Shown: piece after piece, positions 7,831-60,214 of the stretch
Layout: every line of letters starts with the position of its first letter
Numbering within the stretch: position 1 is the stretch's first letter
DNA from: Thermoanaerobaculia bacterium
GTDB taxonomy: Bacteria > Acidobacteriota > Thermoanaerobaculia > Gp7-AA8
Direction of reading: 5' to 3'
NCBI GenBank assembly: GCA_963719365.1
Contig: OY970380.1
Span: 3,506,144-3,570,143, forward strand
DNA: 64,000 nt
Translations under genes and position numbers: made by a program
Notes under the pieces: generated by a model
The model's input: only the letters and a program-made list of their open reading frames with translations
The model's database searches: none
Told to the model about the DNA's origin: nothing

Positions 7831-7952
7831 GGGGGGCGTGTTTCGCTGATCTTAGTCCAACCCGAACCCAGTAGTTGGCCTTTCCAGAAACCGTTGGTTG
7901 CACAGAAATAGTTGCATATAGAAAAATAGAGACCTATAGTGTTCGATCTTCA

Positions 7953-8336
7953 ATGAGTAGAGTGCCCAAGAAGCTGTTGCTCGAACTGACTCCGGCGCTT
8001 GCCGAGCGTCTTCAGGAAGTGTGCGAAGAGCGCGGCGCGACGAAGATTGGTGTGATTCGTTTGGCGCTCGAGATTTATCTGCGCCAAGTTGATCCGGCAG
8101 AGAGCGAACACTTCGTCGTGAAATTGCCAAAGGACACGGCGGAAACCTTTGCCGCGTTCCGTGAGATTCGCAAGTACCCGGACCGCGCGAAGTTGATCGA
8201 GTCGGCGCTGCTCGACCACATCAATCAGGAGTGCGAACAGGAAAAGACGCTGCGACCACACATTGAAAGAGTGAAGAACGTACAGGCTCGGAAGCGAATT
8301 CACGAAATCAAAGAGGCACGGGCGAAAGGCGAGTGA
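7953..8336 (+). CDS. small protein with two ribbon-helix-helix-like units (putative DNA-binding / antitoxin-like)
   Basis: Lies in a visibly lower-GC stretch. KKLLLELTPALAERLQEV..IGVIRLALEIYL and FVVKLPKDTAETFAAFREI..RAKLIESALLDHI each fit a beta-alpha-alpha RHH pattern. Start at the ATG at 7953 is preferred over the upstream TTG at 7875, which would translate an AT-rich leader. Confidence 0.4.
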   Translation: MSRVPKKLLLELTPALAERLQEVCEERGATKIGVIRLALEIYLRQVDPAESEHFVVKLPKDTAETFAAFREIRKYPDRAKLIESALLDHINQECEQEKTLRPHIERVKNVQARKRIHEIKEARAKGE

Positions 8337-8363
8337 AGGGCGTGATGATCCGTGGGGAGAGTC

Positions 8364-8606
8364 ATGATGCAACAAAAGAAACACATCGAAGTGACCGAAG
8401 AAGAGGCCCAGGACTATGTTTCCACCCTTGAGCAGGCAGGGATTCGAGTCCACACGACCACCGAGCTTGGCGAGAAGGCAATCGTGGATATCTACGAGAA
8501 CGACCGATTGCACAGCGAAGTGTGGCGCGTGCTAAAGATGGACGGAACGCCTCGCATCTCGCTCACAATTCGTGGCCGGCGTGGAAACGGGAGCAGCGAT
8601 TCGTAG
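8364..8606 (+). CDS. small hypothetical protein (about 80 aa), co-oriented partner of the RHH gene
   Basis: GGGGAGAG Shine-Dalgarno immediately upstream of the tandem ATGs at 8364 and 8367. Lies 27 nt after the previous stop and has no recognisable motif. Confidence 0.35.
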   Translation: MMQQKKHIEVTEEEAQDYVSTLEQAGIRVHTTTELGEKAIVDIYENDRLHSEVWRVLKMDGTPRISLTIRGRRGNGSSDS

Positions 8607-35540: not shown

Positions 35541-36848
35541 ATGAATCTATGGCAGCAAGTGCTCGACCGGCTGGAGCAAACCATCGAACGGACGCAGTAC
35601 AAAACGTGGTTTGTTCCGACCCGCTTTCTGGCCCAGAAGGGTGACACGATCGATGTCAGCGTACCGTCGCAGCGTTTCGTAAGCGAGATCCGCCAAAACT
35701 ACGCGCAACAGATCCGGTCGATCCTCGACGAGCTCTCGACCGATCACATCAATCTCCACCTCGTCGCGGACACAGAACTTGGTGGCGAGCCGGTTCTCCC
35801 GACGGGACCGGTGCCGTCCGTCGAGATGCCCGCCTCCATCTTCAATCCCCGCTACCGGTTCGAGACGTTCGTTGTCGGCAAATCTAACGAGCTTGCCTTC
35901 GCCGCCTCGAAATCGGTCGCTGAAAATCCGGCCGGCTCTTTCAACCCGCTCTTCATCTACGGCGGCGCCGGCCTCGGCAAAACCCATCTCATCCAGGCCA
36001 TCGCGCAACAGCTTCGCGACACGACCCCGGGCGCGAAGATCGTCTACACATCGGCGGATTCTTTCGTCACGGACTTCATCACCTCGATCCGCTACGACCG
36101 GATGCAGCAGTTCCGCGATCGTTATCGAAAAGTTGACGCTCTCCTCCTCGACGACATCCAGTTCATGGCCAACAAAGAACAGACGCAGGAGGAGTTCTTC
36201 CACACTTTCAATGCCCTTTACGAGACACAGCGACAGATCGTCTTCACCTCCGACGCGCCGCCGAAAGAGATCCCCACACTCGAGGACCGCCTTCGCTCCC
36301 GTTTTGAATGGGGATTGATCGCCGACATCCAGCCACCTGACCTCGAGACGAAGGTAGCAATCCTCCGCAAGAAGGCCGATGAGAAGAAGCTCGACCTTCC
36401 GCACGATGCCGCACTTTTTGTTGCGGAGCGCGTGCGAACGAACATCCGCGAGCTGGAAGGATTGCTCAACCGCATCGAAGTCTTCGCCTCGATGGCGGGG
36501 AAGAAACTCTCGCTGGAGCTGGTGAAGGAAGCACTCAAGGAGTTGCTGTCGAAAGACAACAAACCGATCACCGCGTCCGAAATCTCTCGCGTCGTCGCAG
36601 CACACTACGGAACGACGGTCACGAATCTCAAATCAAAGTCGAACGCAAAGACGGTCGCCTTCCCGCGCCAGGTGGCGATGTACATCTGCAAACATCTGAC
36701 GGATCTTTCCTATCCTGAGATCGGACGCTTCTTCAACGACAAGCATCACTCCACCGTCATGTACTCCGTCGAAAAGATCGACGAGAAAATGCAGAACGAT
36801 CCCCAGTTCGCGCGCGTGCTCGACGGCTTGATGAAGCAGTTCCGATGA
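35541..36848 (+). CDS. dnaA: chromosomal replication initiator protein DnaA
   Basis: Walker A GGAGLGKTHL, sensor/arginine finger region, and C-terminal DNA-binding helix (VAMYICKHLTDLSYPEIGRFFN..DHSTV). Start is taken at the ATG at 35541. Confidence 0.95.
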   Translation: MNLWQQVLDRLEQTIERTQYKTWFVPTRFLAQKGDTIDVSVPSQRFVSEIRQNYAQQIRSILDELSTDHINLHLVADTELGGEPVLPTGPVPSVEMPASIFNPRYRFETFVVGKSNELAFAASKSVAENPAGSFNPLFIYGGAGLGKTHLIQAIAQQLRDTTPGAKIVYTSADSFVTDFITSIRYDRMQQFRDRYRKVDALLLDDIQFMANKEQTQEEFFHTFNALYETQRQIVFTSDAPPKEIPTLEDRLRSRFEWGLIADIQPPDLETKVAILRKKADEKKLDLPHDAALFVAERVRTNIRELEGLLNRIEVFASMAGKKLSLELVKEALKELLSKDNKPITASEISRVVAAHYGTTVTNLKSKSNAKTVAFPRQVAMYICKHLTDLSYPEIGRFFNDKHHSTVMYSVEKIDEKMQNDPQFARVLDGLMKQFR

Positions 36849-37118
36849 ACAGTTGGCACTCTCACGAAGCACTTTCCACAGCACCTGCGGAAACGTCCAT
36901 CCAAAACCTGCGGAGAAAAACGACCGAGGATCACTTGCTCGCAACGACTGCGGAAAACGCGAACGTTCTCCTTCGTTTTTCCGCATCGAAACCCGCAGTT
37001 TTGAACTGGAAGGAACTGCTATACTTTCGAAACCTTTGCAGTGTGATGCCGGGTTTTTCCGCACGCATCCACTGCTTCCACTACTAAGAATAAAGAATTG
37101 GTTTTGAAGGAAGAAGAC
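36849..37118. promoter_or_regulatory. candidate oriC: dnaA-dnaN intergenic region with repeated TGCGGAAAA/TTTTCCGCA 9-mers and an AT-rich stretch
   Basis: Exact 9-mers at 36949-36957, 36977-36985 and 37055-37063. Near-variants at 36872-36880 (CTTTCCACA) and 36886-36894. AT-rich CTACTAAGAATAAAGAATTGGTTTTGAAGG at 37081-37110. Confidence 0.45.
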
Positions 37119-38249
37119 ATGGAGCTGACCGTCGCAAAGGCTGATCTTCAGAAAGAGCTGCAACTTTGCCAGGGAGTCGTCGAAAAGCGCTCGACGATTC
37201 CGATTCTGTCGAACGTGCTGCTCCGCGCGGCTGACGGCCGCCTGCAGATGGCCGCCACCGATCTGGACGTGACGATCCTCAGCTCCTGCGCGGCGCGCGT
37301 CACCACGCCTGGCGGCGTCACGATCGAAGCGAAACGATTGTTCGATATCGTTCGCTCGCTTCCCGACGACGACGTCCACATCACGCTGCAGGAAAACAAC
37401 TCGCTGCTTCTCGATTGCGGCACCGCGAAGTTCCGGCTCCTCGGATTGCCCGCCGAGGATTACCCGACACTGCCGACGGTGAATGCGACCGAGGCGTATG
37501 ACATCCCGCTCGACGAATTGAAGACGATGGTCGCAAAAGTGAAGTTTGCGATCACGCATGAAGAGACACGTTTCCAGTTGAACGGTGCGCTGCTGAAGAT
37601 CCAGCCTACGAAGATGGAGATGGTGGCCACCGATGGTCACCGCATGGCGCTCATCAACTTCCCGCAAGGCAACAACGGCGCGAAAAAAGGGACCGATCTC
37701 ACGATCCTGATTCCTCGCAAGGCGCTGGAAGAAATCATGCGTCTGGAGGCAGGCGAAAACGGGATCGTTCGTTTCGGCGTCTCCGAGAATCACCTTTTCT
37801 TCGAGGCTGCCGAGCGCCGCCTGCTCGCACGCATGATCGACGTCAACTTCCCGAACTACATGGAAGTCATCTCGCGCGACAACGACCGCAAAGTGCTCGT
37901 CGACCGCGAGCGTTTGCTCTCGACCATCCGCCGCATCTCGCTCGTCGCCAACGAACGGACACGTGCCGTGCGCTTCGATTTCGCGCCTGGAAAACTGACG
38001 GTCTCGTCGACGAACCCCGAGCTTGGTGATGCGCGCGAGACAGTTCCCATCGATTACGCCGGCAACCCGTTCTTCGTCGGCCTCAACGCGGCCTACGTCA
38101 CCGACTTTTTGAGCGCGGTCGACACGCAGCAGGTCTCGCTCGATCTCAAAGACGAGAACAGCCAGTGCATCGGCCGTCCCTCGGCAAACGACGCGGACAT
38201 CGCGTACGAATACCTGTACGTCGTGATGCCGATGCGTTTGACGGCGTGA
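37119..38249 (+). CDS. dnaN: DNA polymerase III beta sliding clamp
   Basis: MELTVAKADL N-terminus and three-domain clamp length. The AAGGAAG RBS is correctly spaced for the ATG at 37119; the upstream TTG at 37098 is less likely. Confidence 0.9.
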   Translation: MELTVAKADLQKELQLCQGVVEKRSTIPILSNVLLRAADGRLQMAATDLDVTILSSCAARVTTPGGVTIEAKRLFDIVRSLPDDDVHITLQENNSLLLDCGTAKFRLLGLPAEDYPTLPTVNATEAYDIPLDELKTMVAKVKFAITHEETRFQLNGALLKIQPTKMEMVATDGHRMALINFPQGNNGAKKGTDLTILIPRKALEEIMRLEAGENGIVRFGVSENHLFFEAAERRLLARMIDVNFPNYMEVISRDNDRKVLVDRERLLSTIRRISLVANERTRAVRFDFAPGKLTVSSTNPELGDARETVPIDYAGNPFFVGLNAAYVTDFLSAVDTQQVSLDLKDENSQCIGRPSANDADIAYEYLYVVMPMRLTA

Positions 38250-53171: not shown

Positions 53172-53870
53172 ATGTTTCCCACAACGCGACGCAGTGTGAT
53201 CGTTGCCCTCGCCAGCGACGACGATGAGCAGCGCCGCCGTGCTTTCGACACGTTCGTCGCCATCTACTGGAAGACGCTCTACAAATATCTGCGCGTCACC
53301 GATCGCCGCAACGAAACAGACGCCGAGGATCTGACGCAGGCGTTCCTGGCGAAGTGCTTCGAGAGCGGATCGCTCGCAAATTACGACGCGACGAAAGCGT
53401 CGTTCCGGACGTTTCTGAGAGTGCTCTTCGATCGTTTCGCCGCGAACGAATTCAAAGCATCGCAACGGCAGAAGCGTGGCGGCGGAGCGATTCCGCTCGA
53501 TTTCGAAAACGCGGAACAGGAGATCGCGCGCGAGCACGATCGCGGCGGATCGCCCGAAGACTACTTTCAGCGAGAGTGGGTGCGCAGCGTCTTCGCGCTC
53601 GCGGTCGAGCGGCTGCGCGACGAATGCGCCGGCGCCGGCAGGCAGACGCATTTCGCGATCTTCGAAGCCTACGATCTCGATGAGACATCGCGCTTGTCCT
53701 ATCGAGAAACCGGCGATCGCTTCGGCCTCAGCGAGTCGATGGTGACGAACTGGCTCGCGGCAACGCGCCATCGTTTCCGTGCGATCGTGCTCGACGTGCT
53801 TCGCGAAGCAACCGCCTCGGACGCCGAGTACCGCAACGAAGTGCGCGCACTTCTCGGAGTCGATGCATGA
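53172..53870 (+). CDS. ECF-type RNA polymerase sigma factor
   Basis: Region 2-like DAEDLTQAFLAKCF and region 4 HTH SYRETGDRFGLSESMVTNWLAATRHRF. Confidence 0.65.
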   Translation: MFPTTRRSVIVALASDDDEQRRRAFDTFVAIYWKTLYKYLRVTDRRNETDAEDLTQAFLAKCFESGSLANYDATKASFRTFLRVLFDRFAANEFKASQRQKRGGGAIPLDFENAEQEIAREHDRGGSPEDYFQREWVRSVFALAVERLRDECAGAGRQTHFAIFEAYDLDETSRLSYRETGDRFGLSESMVTNWLAATRHRFRAIVLDVLREATASDAEYRNEVRALLGVDA

Positions 53871-54751
53871 CCTGGCTTTCGGACAACGCCGTCGCGCATC
53901 TCCGCGCGGTTGCCGAGCAGCCTGATTTCAGCGCCACGCGCTACCGTATCGAGCGCGAGCTGGCTCGCGGCGGAATGGGCGTCGTCTACGAAGCGGAAGA
54001 CACGGAGCTGCATCGCCGCGTCGCCATCAAAGTCCTCGCCAGCGAGCTCGCCTCGGCTGACTCTGTCGAACGCATGCGCGCCGAGGCGCGGACGATCGCG
54101 CGGCTGGAACACCCAGGCATCGTGCCGCTCCACGACCTCGGCATCCTTCCCGACGGCCGCATCTGGTACGCGATGAAGCTCGTGCGCGGACGGAGACTCG
54201 ATGAGCTGGACGCGCAGCCGCTCGAGTTGCTGCGCGTTTTCCAGCGCATCTGTGAAAGCGTCGCCTTCGCGCACGCAAATGGCGTCGTCCACTGCGACCT
54301 CAAGCCCGAGAACGTAATGCTCGGCGACTTCGGCGAAGTGCTGGTGATGGATTGGGGAGTCGCGCGCGAGATCGGCAGCGCCGCGGGAGTCATCGCCGGA
54401 ACGCGAGGCTTCATGGCGCCGGAACAGGAGAACGGAATCGCAATCGATGCCGCAGCCGACGTTTTCGCCCTCGGCGCGATGTTGCGCGCGTTGCTCCCCG
54501 TAAAGTTGCCGAAGCCGCTGTCTGCGATCTGCGCGAAGGCGACGGCTCCAAATCCGCGCGATCGGTACCCGTCGGCGCGCGATCTCGCAGCCGACGTGAC
54601 GCTCTGGCTCGACAACAAGCCGGTCAGCGCGTATCGCGAGAACGTCATCGAGCGAATCAACCGCTGGCTCATCCGCAACCGCGCCCTCGTCATGATCGTC
54701 GCCGCCTATCTTCTGATGCGCGTCATCATCGTGATCTGGTTTGGACGATGA
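53867..54751 (+). CDS. Hanks-type serine/threonine protein kinase with C-terminal TM anchor
   Basis: VAIK lysine, HCDLKPEN catalytic loop, DWG (DFG-equivalent), APE, and a C-terminal hydrophobic helix (LVMIVAAYLLMRVIIVIWF). ATGA overlap with the sigma factor gene. Confidence 0.85.
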   Translation: MTWLSDNAVAHLRAVAEQPDFSATRYRIERELARGGMGVVYEAEDTELHRRVAIKVLASELASADSVERMRAEARTIARLEHPGIVPLHDLGILPDGRIWYAMKLVRGRRLDELDAQPLELLRVFQRICESVAFAHANGVVHCDLKPENVMLGDFGEVLVMDWGVAREIGSAAGVIAGTRGFMAPEQENGIAIDAAADVFALGAMLRALLPVKLPKPLSAICAKATAPNPRDRYPSARDLAADVTLWLDNKPVSAYRENVIERINRWLIRNRALVMIVAAYLLMRVIIVIWFGR

Positions 54752-54808
54752 CGTACGTTAAAGGATTTTCGGAAGACGTTGAATAGACTCACTGGAGGAA
54801 CAAACGAC

Positions 54809-55666
54809 ATGAACAAAATCCTGGTAGGACTTCTCCTCGGCGCCGGATTGGGCGCGATCGACGGCCTGACGGCGTGGTTCACACCTGCGGTGCGCGCGGA
54901 CATCATCGGCATCGTCATCGGCTCGACGTTCAAAGGGATGATCGCCGGTATGGCCGCCGGATGGTTTGCGCGCAAAGTGAAATCCGTCGCCTGGGGTATC
55001 GCCTTCGGTCTGCTCGTCGGCGCGCTGCTCGCGTACGGCGTCGCCGCGATGCAGCACGGCTACTACTTCGAGATCATGTTGCCAGGATCGATCGTCGGCG
55101 CCATCGTCGGCTGGGCCACCCAGCGATACGGACGTCCCGTTGGCGGCAGCGCAACGGCGTCAACACTCGCGGCGATGTTCGTCGTGTTCATCACCGTCAA
55201 CGCCCACGCCGCCGAGCCGGTGAAAGCCGCCGATGCCTTCGCGCATCTGAAGTTGCTGGCGGGAACGTGGAACGGACACGCGATGACGCCGGACGGTCCG
55301 GCCACGAGCGTCAGTTACCGGCTCACCGCCGGTGGCACGACAGTGATGGAGACGCTTTTCGGCGGCACACCGCACGAGATGCTCACGCTCTACACGCTCA
55401 ACGGCAACGACGTCGTAGCCACACATTTCTGCGGCGCGGACAATCAGCCGGTGATGAAACTCGACAAGTCGAAGTCGTCGCCGGACCGCCTCGTCTTCTC
55501 CTTCGTCAGCGTCGATGGCGAGCACGCCAAAGACCATCCGCACGTTCACGACGGCTTCATCCACTTCGCCGGCGACGATCAGATCGACGCATCGTGGGCC
55601 ATGCAAAATCCCGACGGCGCCGCGTTCGAGCACAGCCCGAAGTTCTTCTTGACGAGGGCGAAGTAG
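54809..55666 (+). CDS. membrane protein: five Gly-rich TM helices plus a C-terminal extracytoplasmic beta-rich domain
   Basis: GGAGGA RBS 7 nt before the ATG at 54809. N-terminal 120 aa are hydrophobic (GAGLGAIDG, GIVIGSTFKGMIAGMAAGWF). The C-terminal 165 aa are soluble (LAGTWNGHAMTPDG...). An internal ATG at 55175 followed by a signal-peptide-like segment leaves open a two-protein reading. Confidence 0.45.
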   Translation: MNKILVGLLLGAGLGAIDGLTAWFTPAVRADIIGIVIGSTFKGMIAGMAAGWFARKVKSVAWGIAFGLLVGALLAYGVAAMQHGYYFEIMLPGSIVGAIVGWATQRYGRPVGGSATASTLAAMFVVFITVNAHAAEPVKAADAFAHLKLLAGTWNGHAMTPDGPATSVSYRLTAGGTTVMETLFGGTPHEMLTLYTLNGNDVVATHFCGADNQPVMKLDKSKSSPDRLVFSFVSVDGEHAKDHPHVHDGFIHFAGDDQIDASWAMQNPDGAAFEHSPKFFLTRAK

Positions 55667-55724
55667 TCAATCCCCAGATCCATGAAGGCCCTTCTTAGCT
55701 CGCCTGAATCTACCAGGCGTGGAA

Positions 55725-55812
55725 GGGGTCAGACCGAAAGTGAAAGTGACGAAAGATGGCATTGGCCGGAAGCGCAGACAATTTTCGTCACTTTCACTTT
55801 CGGTCTGACCCC
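55725..55812. repeat. perfect 30-bp inverted repeat (GGGGTCAGACCGAAAGTGAAAGTGACGAAA / TTTCGTCACTTTCACTTTCGGTCTGACCCC) with a 28-nt loop
   Basis: Read directly from the sequence. The arms at 55725-55754 and 55783-55812 are exact reverse complements. No U-tract follows. Confidence 0.7.
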
Positions 55813-55865
55813 TCCAGCCAAAGTAATCCATGGGTACAAAACTACAACCGTACTAGCATTGCGGC

Positions 55866-56492
55866 ATGAGACAAATACCTCTGATTCTCTCGCTGCTCTT
55901 CGTCGCTACATCCGCGGTGAGTGCGGAGAAACACTGGGTTCACGAGGATCCCGCGAAGCTGTGTGCCTCGGTGAAAGACAAAGACCTTTGTGCCGATCTG
56001 CTTGCGATTCGGGACCGCGACCAGTTCGCCCGATACGACGCTCTGAATCACCCCGACGACAAGAATCTGGACGAAGTGATTCGGAAGGTCGACCGGGAGA
56101 ATCTCGAACAAGTCGACGCGATCATTCAGAAACATGGCTGGCCCGGAACGTCTCTGGTCGGTGAGAAGGGGAGTGGCAGCGCATGGACCGTGATTCAGCA
56201 CGCCGATCTGGTCACACAGAAAAGGTATCTGCCGGTGATGGTGAAGGCGGCCGACGCGGGCGAGCTCTCGTGGGCGCTCCTGGCAACGACGATCGATCGA
56301 ATTCAGGTGCGGGAGGGCAAGCCCCAAACCTACGGAACGCAGTTCCATCAGGTGAACGGCGAGCTGGTACCCGAACGGATCGAAGATGAAGCGCACGTCG
56401 ACGAACGCCGCAAGAAGGCCGGCTTGCAGCCGCTCGCTGAGTACGCTGCGCTGATGAAGGAGATGTACGCGCGGCCCTCAAAACCGAAGTAG
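55866..56492 (+). CDS. secreted hypothetical protein
   Basis: Signal peptide (MRQIPLILSLLFVATSAVSA). Two Cys (CASVKDKDLCADL). No recognisable catalytic motif. Confidence 0.45.
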   Translation: MRQIPLILSLLFVATSAVSAEKHWVHEDPAKLCASVKDKDLCADLLAIRDRDQFARYDALNHPDDKNLDEVIRKVDRENLEQVDAIIQKHGWPGTSLVGEKGSGSAWTVIQHADLVTQKRYLPVMVKAADAGELSWALLATTIDRIQVREGKPQTYGTQFHQVNGELVPERIEDEAHVDERRKKAGLQPLAEYAALMKEMYARPSKPK

Positions 56493-56526
56493 TGTCGAGC
56501 GCAGTCAACGATTTACAACCCGGCAC

Positions 56527-57315
56527 TTGACAATCCCCCGATCGGACTTCAATGTTTCCCTCTGGCTTTCCGCGCACCGATGCGGCGGCCAGAGGAGCCA
56601 ACCCATCATCACCGTCGACCAGCTTCCTGACAGCCGCCGCGCCATCCTGCTCGCTCTCAAACGGCAGGGCCCTTCCACGATCGCGCAGCTTGCCCATCCG
56701 CTGCAATTGACGGGCGAGGCGGTGCGCCAGCAGTTGCTGCAGCTCCAGCGCGAAGGATGGATCGAGTCACGCGTCGCGCGCGGGGACGAGCGCGGACGCA
56801 CGGGACGTCCGGCCACGCGCTACAACCTCACCGAGGCTGGTGATCATCTCTTTCCGAAGAGCTATGACCTGCTCAACGTCGCCGTGATCGACGCCGTGGC
56901 GCAGGAGTTGGGACCCGACGCGGCGGTGCGCGTGCTCAAACGCGTCTGCGATGACCGCGTGGCCATCGAAGAGAAAACACTCCAGGGGATGCCGCTGGAG
57001 TCGCGCGTCGAAGCGCTCAAAGGACTGTACGCCCCCGCCGATCCGTACATGACCAGTGAGCGCGTCGACGACGGCTTCCTCCTCATCGAGCGCAACTGCC
57101 CCTTCTTCAACACCGCTATGCGCCGCCCCACCCTCTGCAGCGTCTCCGTCAACGCCCTCACCCGCCTCCTCGGCGTCCGCGTCGAGCGTGACGAAACATT
57201 CCAATCCGGCGCCGGCCGCTGCGTCTTCCACATCTACGCGAACGAGCCGATCGACGCGAAGGAATGGGATTTCACGCTGGAGGACGAGCTGCCGAAGCAT
57301 GGAGTTCGGACGTAG
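56527..57315 (+). CDS. winged-helix transcriptional regulator (ArsR-like N-terminus with a C-terminal domain, COG2345-like)
   Basis: HTH region RRAILLALKRQGPSTIAQLAHPLQLTGEAVRQQLLQLQREGWIE, then RGRTGRPATRYNLT wing. TTG start is uncertain. Confidence 0.5.
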   Translation: MTIPRSDFNVSLWLSAHRCGGQRSQPIITVDQLPDSRRAILLALKRQGPSTIAQLAHPLQLTGEAVRQQLLQLQREGWIESRVARGDERGRTGRPATRYNLTEAGDHLFPKSYDLLNVAVIDAVAQELGPDAAVRVLKRVCDDRVAIEEKTLQGMPLESRVEALKGLYAPADPYMTSERVDDGFLLIERNCPFFNTAMRRPTLCSVSVNALTRLLGVRVERDETFQSGAGRCVFHIYANEPIDAKEWDFTLEDELPKHGVRT

Positions 57316-57319
57316 GTCC

Positions 57320-58771
57320 TTAGTCCTCGCTATTTGTCCATCGCAGGCCTTGATCGTACCAGCGCCAAATTTTATCGTCAGGCCATGCGAGTAGTCTTAG
57401 AACGATGCGTTCTGTAAGCACACGCAATCGCACAAGGTCGCTGTTAATTTCGTCGGGAGCGTCGCAAGTGGCGGCATGAAACAAGGCGTTCCGGGCAGCT
57501 GTGGCGCGCGTGAATCCGGAATCGAAGCCCACTGAGGCCGGCCACAAGTCGGCGGTCTTTACCGCAAACTTCTCACAGAGCGCGAGCACTCTTCGCCGTA
57601 TAGAAATACGACGCACTTCGGGCAGCTTCTCTGCTAGAAGTTTGCGCGTCTCTTCACGTTCGGTTGCGTCAACAACTTCGGTTTCCAAGTAGTCCGCGAT
57701 TGCCTGAGTGAGCTGCTTCTTCAGGCGGCCCCACCTCGCCTCGCCAAGGGCGTGAGAATTCTTGCCTTCCCCAGCGCTCACGACACATTCAAGCGCGGAG
57801 AATGCAAGGAAGTACGATCCCTCCAGAGAATCACTGGAGTACGCGCTCGCCAAGAAGCCGATCCCTCGCGATAACTCCTCTTTGCACTCCGTTTTGCTGT
57901 ATGCGCTAAAGAGCTTATGGAGACCGCCGTCTATCAGGTCGCGGAAATTGATTAGGTCGTCCGGCCCACTCCGTTTGGGGGCGCCAAGTATCTTGCGACG
58001 TACGATCGATTGAACCGCTGGCGCATCCTCAGGTGCGTATACATAACTGATCTCATAGAAAGTAACCCTTACGCGGTAGCAGAGGCTGAGAATAGTGCAA
58101 ATGTCAAACACCGTCTGTTGCACTGTTGCGTTCAGCGTCGCGAGCGTTTCACCGGCATGAGCCAGGACATTGCCGAAAATGACGGCTCGCTGCACCAATT
58201 TAGTTACCTTGTTACCAAACTCTTCCTCGCTACCACTGTCGTAAAAATCCCGAACACTCCACGTGCCATGCGCAGTCTCGAGGGTGATCTCGCCTTCCTC
58301 GACATGCTCTCGCTCAATCTCGCCGTTTCCTTTGAACGAAATAACCGCTGGCTGCTGAACAATCCCACTCGGAGTGAGCTGGACGCCCATCCCGTATGTC
58401 CTATCCGTATCAAGGACCTCATCAGTTATTCCGATTTGCACGGCTTCTGCCTCGGGTATTACCACGCGTATTTCACCGCTACCGCCCTCAGAGGCGATCC
58501 CTCGAATTCCCATCAGCTCGACATTTTGGGTTTCTGGTGCCTTCGCGTAGAGTGACAAGTAGTCCCACTCGGGATGGCTAAGTTGCGAATAAACCAGAAT
58601 TCGGTGGTCGCGGTCATCACCGAGTACGTTCAGTCGTATGCTAAGCGATGAAACGTCGTGCTTACGAAATCTGATATCCGCAAAAACCTCGGCAGGAACG
58701 TCGGGCGCTGTAACGGCGGCCGACAATTCATAGATTACTTCGCCAGTTACCGAATCATGACGCATAGTCAC
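57320..58771 (-). CDS. 483-aa protein with a beta-rich N-terminal domain and a C-terminal HEPN-type domain (R-x4-H motif ARNALFH); ApeA-like defence candidate
   Basis: Visibly lower GC than the flanks. C-terminal helical region ends with ...GFTRATAARNALFHAATCD, which matches the HEPN Rx4-6H RNase motif. Convergent with the regulator gene, 4-nt gap. Confidence 0.55.
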   Translation of the reverse strand: MTMRHDSVTGEVIYELSAAVTAPDVPAEVFADIRFRKHDVSSLSIRLNVLGDDRDHRILVYSQLSHPEWDYLSLYAKAPETQNVELMGIRGIASEGGSGEIRVVIPEAEAVQIGITDEVLDTDRTYGMGVQLTPSGIVQQPAVISFKGNGEIEREHVEEGEITLETAHGTWSVRDFYDSGSEEEFGNKVTKLVQRAVIFGNVLAHAGETLATLNATVQQTVFDICTILSLCYRVRVTFYEISYVYAPEDAPAVQSIVRRKILGAPKRSGPDDLINFRDLIDGGLHKLFSAYSKTECKEELSRGIGFLASAYSSDSLEGSYFLAFSALECVVSAGEGKNSHALGEARWGRLKKQLTQAIADYLETEVVDATEREETRKLLAEKLPEVRRISIRRRVLALCEKFAVKTADLWPASVGFDSGFTRATAARNALFHAATCDAPDEINSDLVRLRVLTERIVLRLLAWPDDKIWRWYDQGLRWTNSED

Positions 58772-58849
58772 ACACTACACGAATTAGCAAGCGCAGTGGT
58801 CTAGCTGGGTGGGCGGAATGCGGAGGTGGCGCCCCAGCGAAACGCCGAT

Positions 58850-60214
58850 CTAACCCACCCAAACCGTCTTCACATTCACAAACTCACGAATGCCATAAAC
58901 GCCCAACTCGCGGCCGAAGCCGGAGTGTTTGGTGCCGCCGAAGGGGACTCGAGGGTCGGAGGCGACCATTGCGTTGATGAAGACCTGGCCGGTGTCGATT
59001 GCGGTGATGAAGCCGTTCATTTCGGAGCGGTCGTTGGTCCAGACCGAGGCGCCGAGGCCGAAGGGGGTGTCGTTGGCGATGCGGATGGCGTCGTCAACAT
59101 CCTTGGCGCGGAAGAGCGAGGCGACGGGGCCGAACGTTTCTTCGCGGGCCGCGGGGGCATCGTCTGGGATTCTCGCGAGGACCGTGGGCGCATAAAAGTT
59201 GCCGCGGGCGCCGAGGCGGTGGCCGCCGGTGAGGAGGTGGGCGCCGGCGGCGATTGATTGATTCACTTGCGACTCGATGTCGTCGACGATCTGCGGTGTG
59301 GCCAGCGGACCGACGTCGGTTGACTCGTCGAGCGGATCGCCGACATTCAATGCTTCCATCGCGGCGACAAAGCGCTTCTCGAATTCATCGGCGATCGATT
59401 CGTGGATGATGAAGCGTTTCGCGGCGATGCAGGACTGGCCGTTGTTGATGACGCGCGCTTTCACGGCGGTGGACACCGCGTCTTCGAGATTCGCGGACGG
59501 CATCACGATGAACGGATCGCTGCCGCCGAGCTCGAGGACGGCTTTTTTGATGTGCTTCGCGGCGATCGAGGCGACGCTTGCTCCGGCCGGCTCGCTGCCT
59601 GTCAGCGTCACTGCCCGAACGCGCTCGTCGGCGATGATCGACTCGACCTGTTCCGAGCCGATCAGCAGCGTTTGAAACTCGTGATCGGTGAATCCGGCAT
59701 CGCGAAACGTCTCCTCGATCGCGAGCGCGCACTGCGGCACATTCGACGCGTGTTTGAGCAGCGCCACGTTGCCGGCCATCAGCGCCGGAGCGGCGAAGCG
59801 GAAGACCTGCCAGAAGGGAAAGTTCCACGGCATCACCGCCAGGACGGGACCGAGCGACTCGTAGCGGATGAACGACTCCTTCGCATCCGTCTCAACCTTC
59901 TCATCGGCGAGAAATCCCTCGGCGTGGTCCGCATAAAAGCGGCACGTTGTCGCGCACTTCACCGCCTCGGCCACCGCGGCTTTGAGCGGCTTGCCCATCT
60001 CCGTCGTCATGAGGCGCCCGAGGTCGTTCTTGCGCTCTTCGAGCAACGCGGCGGTGCGGCGCATGCGCGTCGCGCGCTCGGCAAAACTTCGCTCGCGATT
60101 GACACGAAATGCGCTCGATGCCCGAGCGAGCGACGCCTCGATCGCGGCATCATCGAGCGCTTCGAAGGTGCGGATCGTTTCCCCAGTTGCCGGATTGATC
60201 GATGCGATGGCCAT
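58850..60214 (-). CDS. NAD(P)-dependent aldehyde dehydrogenase (succinate-semialdehyde dehydrogenase-like)
   Basis: ALDH motifs: catalytic Cys region ([12 protein letters not shown]), Glu region (LELGGSDP), GxGxxG-like FTGSEPAG. Product is 454 aa. Confidence 0.85.

Follow-up and report, generated by a model that had tools for sequence, protein, structure and literature searches.

HEPN ribonucleases (RNases) are recognized by the signature R-x4-6-H (usually R-N/polar-x3-H) on the third core helix; they act independently of metal, through an active site to which both chains of a dimer contribute. In 2020, Gao et al. reportedly described one such protein, ApeA, as a single-gene HEPN system. Cryo-electron microscopy (cryo-EM) has since resolved ApeA as mainly alpha-helical monomers of ~600 amino acids (aa), in which the N-terminal domain is catenin-like, the Mid domain PafA-like and the HEPN domain split (in Ec2ApeA, HEPN comprises residues 335–583); the monomers assemble into decamers or dodecamers, cleave the anticodon loops of tRNA and are triggered by 5'-phosphorylated deoxydinucleotides, which occupy a pocket flanked by the N-terminal domain and the HEPN domain (10.64898/2026.01.26.701840). 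According to a second study, single-stranded RNA (ssRNA) phage genomes are cut by Ec1ApeA. DARNA is another single-protein HEPN tRNA anticodon nuclease, activated by single-stranded DNA (ssDNA) bound to phage ssDNA-binding protein (SSB) (10.64898/2026.02.22.705581). ApeA and DARNA are both switched on by binding of a ligand or of ssDNA at their non-catalytic domains (10.64898/2026.01.26.701840; 10.64898/2026.02.22.705581). Here we analyze a gene in a 64,000-nucleotide stretch of contig OY970380.1 from a Thermoanaerobaculia bacterium (the window), for which an earlier reading of the letters without database searches (the sequence-only reading) had proposed an ApeA-like HEPN protein. On balance, and with some reserve, we favor the view that this gene encodes a stand-alone, horizontally transferred HEPN RNase that would serve as a one-protein anti-phage or anti-mobile-element system. 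The assignment as a HEPN RNase, an activity that is predicted, carries higher confidence than the role in defense.

This assignment is supported by the conservation of two residues. A word-indexed search of 5.8 billion proteins returned four relatives with 38–54% identity besides the protein itself, and repeating this search with a 97-sequence profile still gave 5 proteins in total. An exhaustive HMMER search, in which an alignment of the word-indexed relatives was compared with 1.84 billion cluster representatives (50% identity clusters), retrieved 843 matches at E <= 1e-3, including 400 at E <= 1e-10 and 100 at E <= 1e-30. Most of these proteins are 465–490 aa long and align end to end. Since the distant matches align only from about position 100–140 on, the family varies most in its first ~100 residues. 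In an alignment of 97 full-length relatives, whose identity to the query goes down to 14–20%, no columns other than R427 and H432 are invariant. Likewise, among the 142 top representatives R427 is kept in 142, H432 in 141 and N428 in 131, followed by E454 (140/142), R448 (137/142) and W410 (136/142); R233 and G150 are kept in 133 of the 136 and 120 of the 122 representatives that cover the respective positions. The segment RNALFH, which contains R427, N428 and H432, is the sole R-x4-H in the window protein. Because 0.74 such motifs are expected by chance from the composition of this protein, the presence of the motif is in itself not evidence; its invariance among relatives is. Two matches of the single window sequence, to Terpene_syn_C_2 (E = 0.14) and to spore_II_R (18 bits against a cut-off of 151.9), were discarded as noise.

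The family occurs in Acidobacteriota, Binatia, Gallionella, a deltaproteobacterial metagenome-assembled genome (MAG) and Xanthomonas, on chromosomes as well as on plasmids. It is unannotated and undetected by current defense-finding models (PADLOC): with the exception of one Joint Genome Institute (JGI) label, all named members are listed as "hypothetical protein" (e.g., Xanthomonas arboricola WP_184378824.1). The labeled member (P0005), which is truncated to 320 aa, is called a "lambda repressor-like predicted transcriptional regulator"; the alignment gives no support for this name, and the protein looks misannotated.

To the conserved motif the predicted structure adds a fold. An AlphaFold2 model built on the 97-sequence alignment (m6b7ffa93c7b8) reached a predicted local distance difference test (pLDDT) score of 96.2 and a predicted template modeling (pTM) score of 0.93, and superseded a run with a 5-sequence alignment (pLDDT 57.9). 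In this model, the C-terminal part is predicted with high confidence to have the HEPN fold, an up-down bundle of four helices that is recognizable as HEPN when structures are compared. By reading the model, we assigned the core helices to residues 316–335 (with E317 and ALE at 326–328), 344–365, 416–433 and 439–460 (with R448 and E454), and helices 369–401 as an insertion in the HEPN domain. On this assignment R427-N428-x3-H432 sits on the third core helix, 416–433. The middle region of the protein holds a conserved motif, DxC..LSLCYR, of which R233 is nearly invariant.

The N-terminal domain is a different case. The family consensus gave no Pfam match to it at E <= 10, the full-length family profile found no sequence match to it in the PDB, and no internal duplication was found in it. 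Foldseek searches of the whole model against PDB and BFVD returned nothing at E <= 1e-3, neither over the full length nor for the N-terminal domain, so that both the whole protein and its N-terminal domain appear to be without a close solved or viral counterpart. The sole notable Foldseek match was BFVD entry A0A3S6HCY2, a viral protein of 222 aa (prob 1.00, target-normalized TM-score 0.55, E = 1.2e-3), which probably is HEPN-like, encoded by a phage and similar to the C-terminal half. Taken together, the protein architecture proposed by the sequence-only reading held up well. The R-x4-H motif, which it had placed in a helical C-terminal region, does lie within a helix of that region; the HEPN fold it had supposed is confidently predicted by the AlphaFold2 model; the arginine and histidine are essentially invariant among homologues (97 relatives; 142 representatives); and the beta-rich N-terminal domain it could not match to anything, now delimited to residues 1–205, also went unmatched with the family consensus against Pfam, the family profile against the PDB and Foldseek of the whole model.

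By analogy with characterized HEPN defense proteins, we can sketch how such an enzyme may work. Two protomers would pair through their C-terminal HEPN domains, and the RNase site would be a composite of the R427-N428-x3-H432 helices from the two subunits. In uninfected cells the enzyme would be kept inactive. Upon infection, a ligand or macromolecule derived from the infection may be sensed by the N-terminal domain, which is beta-rich, in concert with the conserved middle region (R233, G150). This sensing would open or order the active site and allow the HEPN domain to cut RNA, possibly in the anticodon loops of tRNA, as ApeA, DARNA and PrrC do, or in phage RNA, and cleavage would halt translation or phage replication. 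ApeA responds to deoxydinucleotides or phage RNA structure, and DARNA to SSB-presented ssDNA. A more far-reaching proposal, which we put forward as tentative and slightly doubtful, is that the proteins described here form a phylum-spanning and hitherto unrecognized family of one-protein immune sensors, in which a diverged HEPN RNase is controlled by a beta-rich domain with a new fold, or of a new class of sensors, in response to an infection cue unlike those of ApeA or DARNA.

With a guanine plus cytosine (GC) content of 0.540, the gene is the least GC-rich of the 47 open reading frames (ORFs) in the window (mean 0.614, standard deviation 0.025; about 3 standard deviations below the mean), and its GC content at third codon positions (GC3) is 0.58 as compared to a mean of 0.75. 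Sliding-window GC falls from 0.61–0.66 in the flanks to 0.53–0.57 in the gene. Homologues show the same bias: the Gallionella gene has a GC content of 0.35 in flanks of ~0.55, the gene from the deltaproteobacterial MAG 0.36, and others 0.34–0.35. Two homologous loci (L006:9884-11324 and L016:9881-11324) have the HEPN gene alone in common, over 1.44 kb with 81% DNA identity. This observation points to a horizontal transfer that can proceed one gene at a time, in agreement with the gene-sized patch of low GC in the window. In another pair (L006:9838-16075 and L020:9838-16026) the common block extends over 6.2 kb with 90.75% DNA identity between unrelated flanks, and has a GC content of 0.46–0.49 as compared to 0.65–0.69 in the flanks of L020. 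In addition to the HEPN gene this block encodes a 225-aa protein with a Guanylate_cyc domain and a ~1330-aa protein without Pfam or PADLOC match; these two may represent a separate, undescribed defense-like pair that travels with the HEPN gene.

At nine homologous loci we inspected each gene individually, and for 11 further loci we scanned the neighbors as a pool. Over these about 20 loci the gene stands without an obligate partner: its immediate neighbors differ at each of the nine loci, and no family occurs twice among the 73 pooled neighbors from the 11. The neighborhoods are mobile or defense-related. The gene adjoins an rve integrase/transposase (L004), directly follows a tyrosine integrase (L006), is part of an island that also encodes an integrase, HEPN_Cthe2314, DUF3800 and a DUF6602 protein resembling NucC (L001), abuts a type I restriction–modification (R-M) cluster of the order hsdR-S-M (L007), adjoins a TRADD-N-associated transmembrane protein (L008) or a REase_MTES_1575 protein (L009), and on Xanthomonas campestris plasmids (L011) is enclosed by transposase genes of IS3, IS5, Mu and Tn3. 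The pooled neighbors include type IIG R-M, AbiEi/AbiEii, Hhe, MkoA/MkoC (Mokosh), PDC-M54A and PDC-S37, and also Mrr_cat, SIR2_2, nSTAND1 and ParE.

Features of the HEPN gene and its surroundings in the window (Table 1).
Feature	Position	Strand	Description
Whole ORF	57320-58771	minus	483 aa from GTG; stop codon 57320-57322
N-terminal beta-rich domain, residues 1-205	58157-58771	minus	~16 strands, one helix 54-65; ends in long beta-hairpin 169-204
Middle region, residues 206-315	57827-58156	minus	helix 210-232, beta-hairpin 238-259, helices 276-312
C-terminal HEPN domain, residues 316-483	57323-57826	minus	all helical in model
Predicted catalytic motif RNALFH (R427, N428, H432; residues 427-432)	57476-57493	minus	translation verified
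Convergent winged helix-turn-helix (wHTH) gene, ArsR/COG2345-like	56527-57315	plus	262 aa; 4-nt gap (57316-57319) to HEPN gene
Spacer between aldehyde dehydrogenase (ALDH) and HEPN genes	58772-58849	minus	78 nt; no sigma-70-like promoter
ALDH gene	58850-60214	minus	Aldedh E = 3.8e-140; same strand, 78 nt upstream of HEPN gene

The public annotation of the same genome contains an identical protein (P0001) that starts from the ATG at 58765, two codons downstream of the GTG in Table 1, and has 481 aa. The corresponding residue M3 is conserved in 91% of the 97 relatives, and judging by sequence this ATG is likely the real start. The HEPN gene and the wHTH gene have stop codons 4 nt apart, and their convergent transcripts could overlap.

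The wHTH protein shows weak matches to MarR_2/HTH_24 and belongs to a JGI cluster named "predicted ArsR family transcriptional regulator". At 90% identity its cluster has 211 members and that of the HEPN protein one. Metagenome contigs that encode wHTH proteins with 86–92% identity, and represent the window's own lineage, retain the order sigma factor, kinase, 295-aa ORF and wHTH gene. One related contig (L013) keeps this synteny, continues with other genes after the wHTH gene and is without the HEPN gene. Downstream of the wHTH gene the sequence of L013 differs from that of the window, and this side of the gene therefore seems to be a variable spot. As a partner or antitoxin, the wHTH protein could be eliminated: it is unrelated to the convergent neighbor of the homologue P0002, and it is kept in relatives without the HEPN gene. 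It is a resident neighbor outside of the system. The block at 53172-57315, with a putative extracytoplasmic function (ECF) sigma factor (53172-53870), a Ser/Thr kinase (53867-54751), the 295-aa protein and the wHTH protein, is syntenic with L013 and a second contig (L015) at 75–92% protein identity; L015 stops about 300 nt past the wHTH gene. Within this block, a DUF6624 gene (55866-56492, GC 0.59) has no tblastn match in L013 or L015. Two other window ORFs are low in GC, both on the minus strand: 7950-8513 (GC 0.548, GC3 0.62) and 36633-37793 (GC 0.556, GC3 0.56), the latter of which overlaps another ORF in part and may be spurious.

With regard to the locus, the sequence-only reading had noted a gene less rich in GC than its flanks, convergent with a wHTH regulator across a 4-nt gap and with an ALDH gene on its other side, and had concluded that the gene was acquired horizontally. 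The arrangement is as described, and sliding-window GC, per-gene GC and GC3 agree on the low GC content. Acquisition by horizontal transfer is supported by the foreign GC and GC3, the low-GC homologues, the gene-sized sharing between loci and the related contig without the gene. A recurrence of homologues in conserved housekeeping contexts, which that reading had named as an argument against itself, was not seen at the examined loci, where the settings are mobile or defense-related. Overall, the computational checks by which that reading could have been refuted all turned out in its favor, and its interpretation is supported.

Several observations weigh against a role in defense as proposed above. 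Taken alone, the window protein matches nothing significantly in Pfam, PADLOC, NCBIfam or PDB, and searches of phage genomes and of the viral contigs in IMG/VR found no family member. The window locus is not a defense island, since the gene lies between a regulator and an aldehyde dehydrogenase. Near the HEPN gene we found no integrase, insertion sequence or tRNA gene, and no flanking att-like or terminal repeats beyond short repeats at chance level, which leaves the insertion unmarked at this site. Between 57000 and 59100 we counted 0 promoter-like and 0 terminator-like sites; since no sigma-70-like promoter was found, any expression of the gene may depend on read-through from the ALDH gene or on a non-canonical promoter. 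What the pooled neighbor scans provide is raw counts of families over all scanned loci together. Finally, RNase activity, dimerization, the RNA target, the trigger and phage protection are putative, and the N-terminal domain, which holds the nearly invariant G150, is a candidate sensor by inference.

We considered three other explanations. The protein may be a true member of the ApeA family (Gao_Ape/ApeA) that has diverged too far for the available models, in which case it would work just as ApeA does, with doughnut-shaped oligomers, a ligand pocket that lies between N-terminal and HEPN domain, and cleavage of tRNA anticodons. We regard this as unlikely, even though ApeA is the nearest relative by several measures. 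In each case a single gene encodes a protein whose HEPN domain is C-terminal. The description by Anantharaman et al. resembles the present layout, in which ~315 residues precede the HEPN core. Among Pfam families, HEPN_Apea scores best for the family consensus and for 6 of the 97 members at E <= 0.01 (best 7.1e-5); five members match HEPN_RiboL-PSP. The family profile matches Ec1ApeA (PDB 9hxn) with E = 0.0011 over two segments, and in one of them RN..H is aligned. The family consensus aligns with HEPN_Apea (PF18739) over profile positions 3–135 of 136, but with 14.2–15.9 bits (E = 0.018–0.062) it misses the gathering threshold of 24.4, and the window protein has no match to this profile at E <= 10. 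The ApeA N-terminal models of Pfam were matched by none of the 97 members (E <= 0.01) and not by the consensus (E <= 10). Similarly, PADLOC matches among the 97 members were limited to two Cas13-ApeA models (3/97 and 2/97, best 3.4e-5), Csx1 (1/97) and Cas3d (1/97), and the window protein matched 0 PADLOC families at E <= 10. The Foldseek search against PDB yielded no full-length match at E <= 1e-3, and the nearly all-beta residues 1–205 of a 483-aa protein contrast with the mainly alpha-helical ApeA seen by cryo-EM.

Alternatively, the protein could be a selfish or addictive HEPN RNase without phage sensing, either a self-inhibited stabilizer of mobile elements or a polymorphic or secreted toxin directed against competitors. 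HEPN domains are common as toxin–antitoxin and polymorphic toxins (PMC3710099), the family is strongly associated with insertion sequence (IS) elements, integrases and plasmids, and ParE and AbiE toxin–antitoxin modules occur in its neighborhoods. Yet no examined locus has a conserved adjacent antitoxin, MNT or immunity gene, and Pfam scans of the window protein, the members and the consensus detected no secretion or trafficking domain. The two-part architecture of ~470 aa is conserved, as in sensor-effector defense proteins, and neighborhoods that mix genes for R-M, Abi, Mokosh and Hhe are what defense islands typically show. We consider this explanation quite unlikely. That the protein processes RNA in a housekeeping or regulatory role, or is a HEPN-fold ligand binder without catalysis, linked to the neighboring ALDH or wHTH gene, is highly improbable. 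The arginine and histidine are invariant, the composition is foreign, the taxonomic spread is patchy, the 90% cluster has one member, a related contig lacks the gene, and the ALDH and wHTH genes are not linked to the gene at the other examined loci.

ApeA, DARNA, DS-11 and other single-protein HEPN RNases are emerging as models of the coupling between infection sensing and RNA cleavage in one polypeptide, and each newly solved sensor domain of such RNases showed a different trigger. The family described here is invisible to Pfam, NCBIfam and PADLOC, yet it is widespread and mobile as a single gene. If the N-terminal domain is indeed a new sensor, the repertoire of HEPN defense would be extended by a new sensing module and by a compact, ligand-switchable RNase. 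The proposal of a stand-alone HEPN defense RNase is directly testable, because the confident model gives clear residues for such work: R427 and H432 as predicted catalytic residues, and G150, R233, E317, W410, R448 and E454 as candidate regulatory ones. Nevertheless, we view this as an incremental advance, which adds a further HEPN defense architecture and no new principle, at a time when new HEPN architectures are being validated regularly. DefensePredictor has identified four new HEPN-containing systems (PMC13092281), and the present family may overlap with these.

How, then, does this family compare with the known systems? The minimal HEPN toxins and abortive infection (Abi) HEPN proteins, i.e., HepT/MntA, AbiV, AbiA HEPN and Csm6/Csx1, are toxins of ~130–150 aa with a neutralizing partner (MNT), or fusions to CARF or reverse transcriptase domains; the window family in contrast has no partner gene and carries a different, unmatched N-terminal domain. 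A HepT/MntA-type toxin–antitoxin system was ruled out, as the protein has 483 aa, its neighbors are the wHTH and ALDH genes, and the examined homologous loci contain neither MNT nor a recurrent partner. DARNA has its HEPN domain at the N-terminus (1–159), followed by an alpha-helical Pds5-like C-terminal sensor, whereas the window family has these two parts the other way round and a beta-rich sensor candidate; a sequence match between the two was not detected. Compared with ApeA, the likeness is closer. Both are encoded by a single gene, both carry the R-N-x3-H helix in a C-terminal HEPN domain that follows a large N-terminal part without catalytic function, and both have HEPN insertions around the four core helices; by analogy, the logic of a ligand-gated RNase would be expected in the window family as well. 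On the other hand, the window protein has 483 aa rather than about 600, and almost only beta structure in residues 1–205 followed by a short middle region of helices and a hairpin, where ApeA has alpha-helical N-terminal and Mid domains. Because the N-terminal architecture differs and every threshold-based membership test came out negative, we place the family as a sister or variant of ApeA rather than within it. The label "ApeA-like" chosen by the sequence-only reading applies only loosely: the nearest HEPN family is of the Apea type, as the Pfam and 9hxn matches indicate, while the scores stay below the Pfam threshold and the architecture is unlike that of cryo-EM ApeA. By analogy, the term "ApeA-like" probably describes a shared working mode and not membership in the family.

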